Assembly (NCBI RefSeq): GCF_051903065.1
Contig: NZ_CP178438.1
Source: Escherichia coli
Lineage (GTDB): Bacteria > Pseudomonadota > Gammaproteobacteria > Enterobacterales > Enterobacteriaceae
Strand: one strand, 5' to 3'
DNA length: 64,000 nt
Shown: in pieces, positions 59,367 to 61,341 of the stretch
Position numbering within the stretch: position 1 is the stretch's first letter
Layout of the letters: the number at the start of each line of letters is the position of its first letter
Made by a program: the position numbers and the translations under genes
Notes under the pieces: model-generated
Databases searched by the model: none
What the model saw: the letters and a program-made list of their open reading frames with translations, nothing else
Told to the model about the DNA's origin: nothing

Positions 59367-60139
59367 TTATTTGATTTCAATTTTGTCCCACTCCCTGCCT
59401 CTGTCATCGCGATACTGTGATGCCATGGTGTCCGACTTATGCCCGAGAAGATGTTGAGCAAACTTATCGCTTATCTGCTTCTCATAGAGTCTTGCAGACA
59501 AACTGCGCAACTCGTGAAAGGTAGGCGGATCCCCTTCGAAGGAAAGACCTGATGCTTTTCGTGCGCGCATAAAATACCTTGATACTGTGCCGGATGAAAG
59601 CGGTTCACGACGGGTAGATGCAATTATGGTTTCTCCGCCAAGAATCTCTTTGCATTTATTAAGTGTTTCCTTCATTGATATCCCGAGAGCATCAACATGC
59701 AATGTTGTAGGGATGGCAATTTTTACGCCTGTTTTGCTTTGCTCGACATAAATATATCCATCTACGATATCAGACCACTTCATTTCGCATAAATCACCAA
59801 CTCGCTGCCCGGTAACAACAGCCAGTTCCATTGCAAGTCTGAGCCAACATGGTGATGATTCTGCTGCTTGATAAATTTTCAGGTATTCATCAGCCGTAAG
59901 TCTTGATCTCCTTACCTCTGATTTTGCTGCGCGAGTGGCAGCGACCGGGTTTGTTGTTGCATGGCCTTCAGCTAATGCCTCTCGGAATGCATCGCTCAGT
60001 GTTGATCTGATTAACTTGGCTGATGCCGCCTTGCCCTCGTCTATGTATCCATTGAGCATTGCCGCAATTTCTTTTGTGGTGATGTCTTCAAGTGGAACAT
60101 CAGGTAGCCCCCTCCTTATTGCTTTAATTTTGCTCATGT
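59367..60139 (-). pseudogene. int: Lambda-like integrase gene, 5'-truncated (about the C-terminal 256 codons remain)
   Basis: Translation MSKIKAIRRGLPD...DRGREWDKIEIK corresponds to lambda Int from about residue 100 to the C-terminus with a few substitutions; similarity stops abruptly at about 60139 where the IS inverted repeat begins. Confidence 0.9.
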
Positions 60140-61341
60140 GTATTAGTCGCGACTTGATCTGACACTGAGCCTTGAAAGGTTGAGAGTTACCGGTTTTGAT
60201 ATGGGTGTCGAATCCTTATACAAAACACGAGGTAACTCTCATGCTTCATACTAACAATCCCGTCATCAAACACAAAGCCGGTTTGCTCAATCTGGCTGAA
60301 GAACTCCGCAATGTTTCGAAGGCCTGCAAAATCATGGGCGTCTCGCGTGATACGTTTTACCGTTATCGCGAACTGGCTGATGAAGGTGGGGTGGATGCAC
60401 TGATTAACCGCACTCGACGAACGCCCAATCTAAAAAATCGTACCGATGATGCAACTGAGCGGGCCGTTGTTGATTATGCCATCGCGTACCCTGCGCATGG
60501 CCAGCACCGGACCAGCAATGAGCTACGTAAGCAAGGTGTCTTCATCTCAGGAAGGGGTGTACGTTCTGTCTGGCTGCGGCATAACCTTGAGAACTTCAAA
60601 AAGCGGCTGAAAGCACTGGAGGAAAAAGTAGCCCGTGACGGTATCGAGCTGACAGAAGCACAGATAGTCGTTCTGGAGCGTAAAGCCAGCGATGACGAAG
60701 CGTGTGGTGAAATCGAAACCGCACATCCCGGTTATCTGGGCTCTCAGGATACGTTCTACGTGGGTAATCTGAAAGGAGTCGGACGCATTTATCAGCAAAC
60801 GTTCGTTGACACCTACTCGAAGGTCGCACACTGTAAACTGTATGTAACCAAAACACCGATCACGGCTGCTGACCTGCTGAATGATCGTGTGTTGCCATTT
60901 TACGAATCGCAAAACCTGCCAATGCTGAGAATACTGACCGACAGAGGAACAGAGTACTGCGGTAAGGTGGAACAGCATGACTACCAGCTATATCTGGCAA
61001 TAAATGATATAGACCACACGAAAACTAAAGCGATGTCACCGCAGACAAATGGCATCTGCGAGCGGTTCCATAAGACGATACTGAACGAATTTTATCAGGT
61101 GACGTTCCGTAAAAAGTTGTATGGAGCTCTCGATACATTGCAATCGGATCTTGATGAGTGGCTGGCTCACTATAATAATGAACGAACCCATCAGGGAAAA
61201 ATGCGCAATGGGCGGACGCCAATGGAAACGTTACTTGATGGAAAGCGCATCTGGGCCGAGAAAAATTTAAGCCGGATGTAATCTGACAGATACCTGTATA
61301 AATAACCGGTAACTGTCAGATCAGGTCTGAGCTAATACACA
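60137..61341 (+). mobile_element. IS481-family-like insertion sequence (about 1.2 kb) at the prophage deletion junction
   Basis: Imperfect terminal inverted repeats (TGTGTATTAG at both ends, internal TGATCTGACA 18 nt in from each end); single DDE transposase ORF; no matching flanking direct repeat. Confidence 0.6.
60241..61281 (+). CDS. DDE transposase (integrase-core/rve type, IS481-family-like)
   Basis: N-terminal HTH region, then D...D...E core ending in a SPQTNGxxERF-type motif; ATG at 60241 behind GAGG (the ORF track starts at an upstream TTG at 60196). Confidence 0.7.
   Translation: MLHTNNPVIKHKAGLLNLAEELRNVSKACKIMGVSRDTFYRYRELADEGGVDALINRTRRTPNLKNRTDDATERAVVDYAIAYPAHGQHRTSNELRKQGVFISGRGVRSVWLRHNLENFKKRLKALEEKVARDGIELTEAQIVVLERKASDDEACGEIETAHPGYLGSQDTFYVGNLKGVGRIYQQTFVDTYSKVAHCKLYVTKTPITAADLLNDRVLPFYESQNLPMLRILTDRGTEYCGKVEQHDYQLYLAINDIDHTKTKAMSPQTNGICERFHKTILNEFYQVTFRKKLYGALDTLQSDLDEWLAHYNNERTHQGKMRNGRTPMETLLDGKRIWAEKNLSRM

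Follow-up and report, generated by a model that had tools for sequence, protein, structure and literature searches.

An IS481-family insertion sequence at the junction of a large internal deletion in a gtr-carrying prophage at the lambda attachment site of Escherichia coli

Results

Organization of the prophage remnant

The window, by which we mean the whole 64,000-nucleotide stretch of Escherichia coli DNA analysed here (NCBI RefSeq assembly GCF_051903065.1, contig NZ_CP178438.1), carries in its last 5 kb one attachment core, two truncated phage genes on either side of an insertion sequence, and part of a glucosyltransferase module. The features are as follows.

59279..59293, plus strand: attL core, lying between ybhC and int' and identical to the lambda att core GCTTTTTTATACTAA
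59367..60138, minus strand: int', a truncated lambda-type integrase gene retaining Int residues 101-356
60139..61339, plus strand: IS481-family insertion sequence, apparently intact, 1201 bp, with boundaries matched in 11 other loci
60139..60164, plus strand: IRL, the left inverted repeat, TGTATTAGTCGCGACTTGATCTGACA, starting TGT and agreeing with IRR at 21 of 26 positions
61314..61339, minus strand: IRR, the right inverted repeat, whose reverse complement is TGTATTAGCTCAGACCTGATCTGACA, matching IRL at 21 of 26 positions
60241..61281, plus strand: transposase gene, whose 346-aa product has an HTH at the N-terminus and an rve (DDE) core
61340..62238, plus strand: tailspike', a 3' fragment comprising the last 298 codons and the stop, with about 351 N-terminal codons absent
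62266..63873, minus strand: predicted gtrC-type serotype-specific O-antigen glucosyltransferase gene, 535 aa, full length, assigned from PHROG matches
63873..64000, minus strand: 3' end of the GT2 bactoprenol glucosyltransferase gene gtrB, which runs past the window end and was placed by the annotation of an identical locus (L001) plus the coordinate offset

The exact att core occurs once in the window, against 0.12 occurrences expected when up to 2 mismatches are allowed. The gtrA gene, the P arm of attP and attR lie beyond the window end and were read from L001.

The IS481-family element

The limits of the element were set by comparison with 11 other E. coli loci carrying either an identical-type element (99.6-100%) or a sister element of 87% identity. 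Across all compared loci the conserved unit starts TGTATTAGTCGCG and ends CTAATACA. In the window its ends read TGTATTAG...CTAATACA, that is TGT...ACA, and form imperfect 26-nt inverted repeats that both start 5' with TGTATTAG; the left-end 26-mer is found once within the window, with 0 occurrences expected. A repeat finder returned longer arms (60136-60164 and 61314-61342, 29 nt, 83% complementary), and the bases outside 60139-61339 are flanking TG and CA that extend the inverted repeat by chance. An earlier note on this DNA had described an element of about 1.2 kb with imperfect inverted repeats at 60137-61341; the description stands, while the coordinates were 2 nt too long at each end.

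The single 346-aa transposase reading frame is intact and requires no programmed frameshift. It scored 279.2 bits (E 4.2e-83) against the NCBIfam equivalog model NF033577, transpos_IS481, whose cut-off is 224, with an alignment spanning profile positions 2-283 of 284; its score against the IS3 model was 77.5, below the cut-off of 160. Pfam searches revealed HTH_29 (2.4e-18), rve (3.3e-06) and rve_3 (2.6e-11), and the motifs GSQD, LTDRGTE and GICERF are present at the expected spacing. Read from these motifs, D170, D234 and E274 are the candidate catalytic DDE triad. The one DDE transposase gene and the IS481-like affiliation proposed in the earlier note are thus both borne out, and similarity to insertion sequences is shown by the curated family model.

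RefSeq already labels this frame (60241-61281) as an IS481 family transposase. Terminal inverted repeats starting TGT are a property of both the IS3 and the IS481 families. Taken together, the profile match, the single HTH and DDE reading frame, the TGT ends and a short target duplication on simple insertion place the element in the IS481 family. We found no name for the 1201-bp element in the literature.

Distribution of the element and its target duplications

Matches over at least 80% of the element were found in 78 records, corresponding to 76 of 5,426 complete E. coli genomes. Elsewhere in this set, a single genome holds up to 9 matching places, full or partial. In about 3,100 further genomes or records there is a fossil, annotated ylbG, that is 87% identical and has an internal deletion. 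The ylbG pseudogene of E. coli K-12 shares 87% DNA identity with parts of the window element and is thus the fossil of a sister IS481-family element; it is an internally deleted, immobile stretch of about 0.5 kb, whereas the window element is full length with an intact transposase.

At five of eight other loci bearing the window-type element or its 87% sister, perfect 7-bp direct repeats lie on either side: ACTGACT (L004), TTTAATG (L009), ATTAAGG (L011), ATTTACA (L013) and TATAATG (L014). The element resembles the Bordetella pertussis prototype IS481 in its family-model match, its single HTH and rve/DDE reading frame, its length of about 1.2 kb, its TGT ends, its short fixed-length target duplication and its association with deletions and rearrangements. 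IS481 itself duplicates 6 bp at NCTAGN, whereas the window-type element duplicates 7 bp of AT-rich or mixed composition without CTAG.

The earlier note had asked how many copies lie elsewhere in the genome. The host genome contains exactly one other match, full length and 100% identical, at the mdtA locus. This second copy lies between mdtA and ibs, at the edge of a prophage remnant, with mdtA on one side and a second tailspike'-gtrCBA remnant on the other, and its flanks, GGGTACA and AATTACC, likewise lack a target duplication. Both host copies share one orientation, a position at the left edge of a tailspike-gtrC-gtrB-gtrA remnant and the absence of a duplication. Strains 33F4, 32F4 and 33E possess the mdtA junction and lack the one at the lambda attachment site, so that the mdtA copy is the older and the likely donor. 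An exchange of flanks between the two host copies by inversion or translocation was also considered and rejected, as the flanks show no crosswise match (GCTCATG/CATTTGT versus GGGTACA/AATTACC).

The left flank is a truncated lambda-type integrase gene

The reading frame of int' (59367-60137, minus strand) aligned by phmmer to lambda integrase in the PDB (1z1g, 5j0n), with query residues 1-256 corresponding to Int residues 101-356 (E 1.7e-162 to 6e-162 against full-length PDB chains). Compared with the intact 1071-bp int gene of L005, which occupies this chromosomal site too, the window shows 12 mismatches in 906 bp and aligns without gaps up to 60138. Past this breakpoint the L005 gene goes on as TAATTTATGAG, and the window enters the insertion sequence. 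The claim that lambda int homology ends exactly at the element is accordingly correct, the last homologous base being 60138.

The gene has lost the 5' 299 of its 1071 bp, so that the arm-binding domain is absent and the core-binding domain incomplete. With residues 101-356 of 356 remaining, it lacks the full length and the arm-binding domain expected of a functional lambda-type integrase. The apparent ATG of the truncated frame (60135-60137) is the native internal Met101 codon, and RefSeq lists the gene as a pseudogene with its N-terminus missing. This int allele is common, being present at 80% or more query coverage in 1,888 genomes.

The right flank is a tailspike fragment

To the right of the element, a reading frame follows a TAA at 61333-61335 inside the IS end and stays open to 62238, with its first ATG at 61453; the open frame without start-codon context reported in the earlier note is this one. 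Only four relatives were found in a large protein database. Two of them, 456 and 478 aa long, reach far upstream of the junction. A third, of 435 aa, is a frameshifted N-terminal part that carries PF18668 (Tail_spike_N); from about its residue 352 onward it overlaps with the fragment in the window. The contig that encodes it (L007) holds a tailspike gene that is full length but frameshifted, with gtrC, gtrB and gtrA next in order, and shares 97.8% DNA identity with the window from the IS terminus at 61339 to the window end. The right breakpoint, at 61339/61340, thus falls near codon 352 of a tailspike gene of roughly 650 codons.

Because its full-length relative carries Tail_spike_N, the truncated gene is that of a tailspike rather than a lambda-type tail fiber, and the fragment represents the C-terminal part, where the receptor-binding region usually lies. 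The earlier note had the 3' part of int fused to a tail-fiber and gtr end; the int and gtr ends hold, and the tail fiber gives way to a tailspike. The sole phage match to the fragment is CBA6, at 44% protein identity. RefSeq labels 61453-62238 a hypothetical protein, which is an artefact of the tailspike truncation. The ancestor would have been a gtr-carrying prophage using the lambda attachment site, and its virion need not have been lambda-like.

The gtr module adjoins attR

The gtrC product matched PHROG 20513 (1.7e-133) and PHROG 34335, glycosyltransferase for O-antigen conversion (9.5e-85); RefSeq names it a DUF6056 family protein. Its orthologue in L007 is of equal length and contains PF19528 (GT_STM0557_N), and the L007 gtr orthologues together carry PF04138, PF00535 and PF19528. 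By annotation this is a gtrABC cluster: gtrC is full length, gtrB and gtrA are complete genes in the identical locus L001, and the cluster adjoins an att site.

The identical locus was found in three of the 5,426 complete genomes (ECNB21-M121, 23CRST027 and 23CRST031), and the sharing of one identical junction is consistent with a single event later passed on by descent. The L001 locus runs ybhC, attL core, int', IS, tailspike', gtrC, gtrB, gtrA, an 84-nt gene fragment, attR core and ybhB. Its attR core is exact, adjoins ybhB and lies 6316 bp downstream of the attL core; with two exact cores at this spacing, the whole remnant measures 6.3 kb. A stretch of 234 bp through the attR core is 88-95% identical to attP of 434, HK97 and lambda-type phages. 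This lambda-type P arm assigns the right end to a phage using the lambda attachment system. The gtrB-gtrA-attR-ybhB arrangement recurs in 105 genomes, one of them with an intact prophage.

The module resembles the serotype-conversion modules of P22-, SfV-, SfX- and SfII-type phages, in which tailspike, gtrC, gtrB and gtrA adjoin attP or attR and gtrC is variable and serotype-specific. It differs from them in its lambda att site and lambda-type Int, and in that only the module survives. We infer that the remnant can neither excise nor make virions: Int lacks its arm-binding domain, xis is entirely missing, and no virion or lysis genes are encoded. To judge from the sequence, glucosylation is probably kept and the remnant probably still modifies the O antigen, given a full-length gtrC (535 aa, as in L007), complete gtrB and gtrA genes and an undisturbed operon whose upstream region, next to attR, is likewise intact. 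An outward promoter in the IS that might drive int' or tailspike' was sought and dropped; a consensus scan was empty at both IS ends and returned fewer sites overall than shuffled sequences.

Extent of the deletion

The earlier note had called for comparison with strains carrying the undeleted prophage. Strain JNE131328 (L016) has an intact, 40,336-bp P22-like prophage at the lambda attachment site, in the order attL, int, xis, early genes, lysis, head, tailspike, gtrC, gtrB, gtrA and attR. The int breakpoint maps to position 9316 in L016 and the tailspike gene to 43541-45619, about 35 kb apart, and the att cores are spaced 40,336 bp apart in L016 versus 6,316 bp here. The stretch from gtrB and gtrA to the attR core in L001 is collinear with, and 87% identical to, the right end of the L016 prophage. 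An intact prophage gene order is not maintained across the region; it is interrupted at the element.

The loss would thus amount to about 35 kb, an estimate mapped on L016 for an ancestor whose tailspike/gtrC allele is seen only in deleted form. Among the E. coli genomes, no undeleted prophage carries this allele; it occurs in only three, all with the identical deletion. The nearest full-length tailspike-gtr relative, L007, belongs to a different, itself heavily deleted prophage with a 387-aa integrase, whose internal deletion junction contains no IS. As no direct ancestor was found, the origin of both flanks from a single prophage rests on the shared lambda att ends.

The junction points to an IS-mediated deletion

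At the window copy GCTCATG precedes the IS on the left and CATTTGT follows it on the right; as the earlier note had observed, there is no target duplication. Both prophage homologies stop within one ambiguous base of the IS termini. A duplication is usual for this element (five of eight loci) and is absent here, which argues that the IS took part in the deletion and was not inserted into an old scar. The view of the element as the junction of a large internal prophage deletion thus finds its counterpart in the int breakpoint, the tailspike breakpoint and the approximately 35 kb that separate them in L016. Every part described earlier is present, with the ends corrected by 2 bases.

We therefore favour, with a probability of about 0.88, the reading that a gtr-carrying prophage at the ybhC/ybhB lambda attachment site lost about 35 kb by an IS-mediated event. 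In the proposed sequence of events, a gtr prophage with lambda-type Int and attP would have integrated at the E. coli lambda attachment site (ybhC/ybhB). A copy of the 1201-bp IS481-family element would then have entered it, probably from the identical mdtA-locus copy in the same genome. An IS-mediated event would have deleted some 35 kb, all the DNA that lay between int codon 100 and tailspike codon ~351, leaving a 6.3-kb remnant of attL, int', IS, tailspike', gtrC, gtrB, gtrA and attR. That a single prophage was the substrate, and the deletion route it took, we infer from the junction and its relatives.

The reverse order of events, in which an IS-independent deletion (by illegitimate recombination, for example) came first and an IS later entered the scar by chance, finds a precedent in prophage remnants without IS, such as the IS-free internal junction of L007. 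A later simple insertion, however, would carry the 7-bp duplication that is missing here, and chance would not be expected to place the ends of both homologies within one base of the IS termini. We regard this order as very improbable.

Slightly less remote, though still improbable, is a chimeric origin, with the int' side and the tailspike-gtr side drawn from two IS-carrying phage genomes, such as those of a resident prophage and of a superinfecting or adjacent one, that recombined through the IS. The two sides do differ in frequency: the tailspike/gtrC allele is rarely seen, in three E. coli genomes and the 97.8% relative with another integrase, and the int allele occurs in 1,888 genomes. 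Lambdoid and P22-like phages are, moreover, highly mosaic. Yet at the right end the P arm is lambda-type and the attR core, adjoining ybhB, is exact, and the recurrence of gtrB-gtrA-attR-ybhB in 105 genomes suggests that the tailspike-gtr module is at home in prophages at the lambda attachment site. Ordinary exchange of modules ahead of the deletion accounts for the mosaicism upstream of gtrB. An IS-mediated deletion within one prophage remains the preferred reading.

Route of the deletion

Two routes would yield the identical product. The earlier note had proposed an adjacent deletion from one IS end; its core, an IS-mediated deletion, holds, and the adjacent deletion is one of these two routes. 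We favour it weakly, at barely better than even odds, in the form of a single insertion and, after it, an intramolecular event starting at one end of the IS.

The other route, which we consider plausible but short of even odds, invokes two same-orientation IS copies, in int and in the tailspike gene respectively, between which RecA-dependent recombination would have deleted the 35 kb together with one copy. It predicts what is seen, namely one IS, flanks from two sites and no matching duplication. The element is also mobile in the lineage, with two 100% identical copies here and up to 9 places in one genome elsewhere, and recombination between IS481 copies is a documented source of deletions and inversions in Bordetella pertussis. 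Against this, it needs two independent same-orientation insertions in one prophage, in a genome that now holds two copies in total, and neither single insertion was seen in any genome. The mdtA copy is likewise a junction without duplication, and two insertions per prophage at two loci would be less parsimonious; for this reason the one-insertion route is favoured.

The preference for a single insertion stays weak on account of the chemistry. The IS481 family is thought to resemble IS3, and transposition of the IS3 kind, by copy-out-paste-in, does not by itself delete donor DNA and is not expected to, whereas deletions in Bordetella arise by recombination between IS481 copies. To our knowledge, IS481-family elements have not been demonstrated to make adjacent deletions on their own, and a literature search found no such demonstration.

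An undeleted precursor was searched for with a synthetic query joining the IS right end, a GCTCATG duplication and the int continuation, at a required length coverage of at least 80%; no intact int carrying the IS at the lambda attachment site was found in any of the 5,426 E. coli genomes. The junction k-mers that would be diagnostic are the int-IRL boundary as found here, IRR followed by GCTCATGTAATTTATGAG, and tailspike sequence ending ...AATTCAAATACATTTGT followed by IRL. The AT-richness of the flanking 7-mers was also tried as a guide to the side of the original insertion. The IRR side is richer at both host loci, and the pattern is inconsistent at other junction copies, so that the signal is too weak to use.

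Relation to known prophage decay

The case is an ordinary, textbook instance of IS-mediated prophage decay, of a kind already known and involving an already annotated IS481-family element. As in the decay of lambdoid prophages of E. coli and Shigella, an IS lies at a large internal deletion, the remnant is immobile and a host-beneficial moron is kept. Known cases include K-12's cryptic prophages and, in O157 and Shigella, deletions driven by IS629 and IS1. The present locus differs from these in involving IS481 instead of IS1, IS3 or IS629, and in its breakpoints.

Its reconstruction explains why a prophage stub of 6.3 kb that cannot excise occupies the lambda attachment site; the stub probably still changes the O antigen, which bears on serotyping and phage susceptibility. 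The reconstruction also corrects the annotation of a hypothetical protein to a tailspike fragment, and documents the exact ends and the 7-bp duplication of an enterobacterial IS481-family element also known as a fossil, ylbG, in K-12.

One feature alone is mildly unusual: both host copies border tailspike-gtr remnants in one shared orientation, which may reflect selection for gtr or coincidence. We consider it doubtful that the element, or selection on its deletions, repeatedly strips gtr prophages down to the O-antigen module; were it so, a single IS would be driving prophage domestication by a route that recurs.

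A second gtr prophage remnant bordered by the element

The IS481-family element at the prophage deletion junction recurs, with 100% identity, in the same genome outside the window:

NZ_CP083585.1 1760999-1762199 (corresponding to L015 4001-5201 and L017 500-1700 among the extracted loci), second copy of the element

This copy is flanked by mdtA on one side and a P22-type tailspike N-terminal pseudogene on the other, beyond which a hypothetical protein of 537 aa is encoded, followed by gtrC-gtrB-gtrA, a lambda-like P arm and ibs/ibsA/yegL. No 7-bp duplication, the target duplication made by simple insertion of this type of element, surrounds the mdtA copy (GGGTACA versus AATTACC flanks), and its orientation relative to the tailspike and gtr genes is that of the window copy. 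The mdtA locus is therefore a second gtr prophage remnant bordered by the element.

The same mdtA, element and truncated tailspike junction was found in another strain:

L003 (NZ_CM147849.1, strain 33F4) 3001-4201, copy of the element with 99.8% identity

This junction is common to strains 33F4, 32F4 and 33E, but all three lack the att-lambda junction, where the window copy separates truncated int from the tailspike fragment; the mdtA copy therefore predates the window copy.

Association of the element with rearrangement junctions

When the window and mdtA copies are counted, roughly half of the examined loci have the element at a rearrangement junction. The 7-bp duplication is missing at four further copies of the element or its 87%-identical sister element (loci L002, L008, L010 and L012), among them:

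L002 (NZ_OY856299.1) 3001-4201, copy of the element without the 7-bp duplication

At L002 the surroundings are Rac/Qin-like, with a pin-type recombinase gene on one side of the element and ynaK on the other. Strain EC7072022BGR carries eight chromosomal matching places and one on a plasmid. Most of the approximately 3,100 records whose best match to the element falls at 80-90% identity derive from ylbG, a pseudogene of K-12 and many other E. coli genomes that represents a fossil of the sister element, internally deleted to about 0.5 kb.

The tailspike-gtrCBA module and its surroundings

Within the window, one fragment of the module is annotated as intact in RefSeq:

61453-62238, 'hypothetical protein' WP_104773342.1

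This protein is the C-terminal 261 aa of the truncated tailspike, starting at the first internal ATG. Among relatives of the tailspike-gtrCBA module, the nearest shows 97.8% identity:

L007 (Logan SRR32429200 contig) 44-11243, tailspike-gtrCBA relative

Its host is another strongly reduced prophage, comprising a 387-aa integrase, a handful of early genes, a pair of holin genes and a tailspike with a frameshift. Since no insertion sequence occupies the internal junction of this reduced prophage, it seems that more than one route allows gtr modules to outlast the prophages that carry them.

In a strain with an identical locus (L001), the region right of attR, beyond the part that corresponds to the window, contains a ybhB pseudogene annotated with an internal stop (14564-15040) and a frameshifted InsQ/TnpB-family gene between ybhB and bioA (15149-16265). 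The region upstream of gtrA (14014-14170), likewise outside the window, includes a CGATCGATCG-type stretch with GATC at 14068, and GATC occurs again at 14165; the mdtA locus has a near-identical counterpart of the stretch ahead of its own gtrA. Dam/OxyR phase variation has been described for Salmonella gtr operons, and this GATC-bearing stretch might be related to it.
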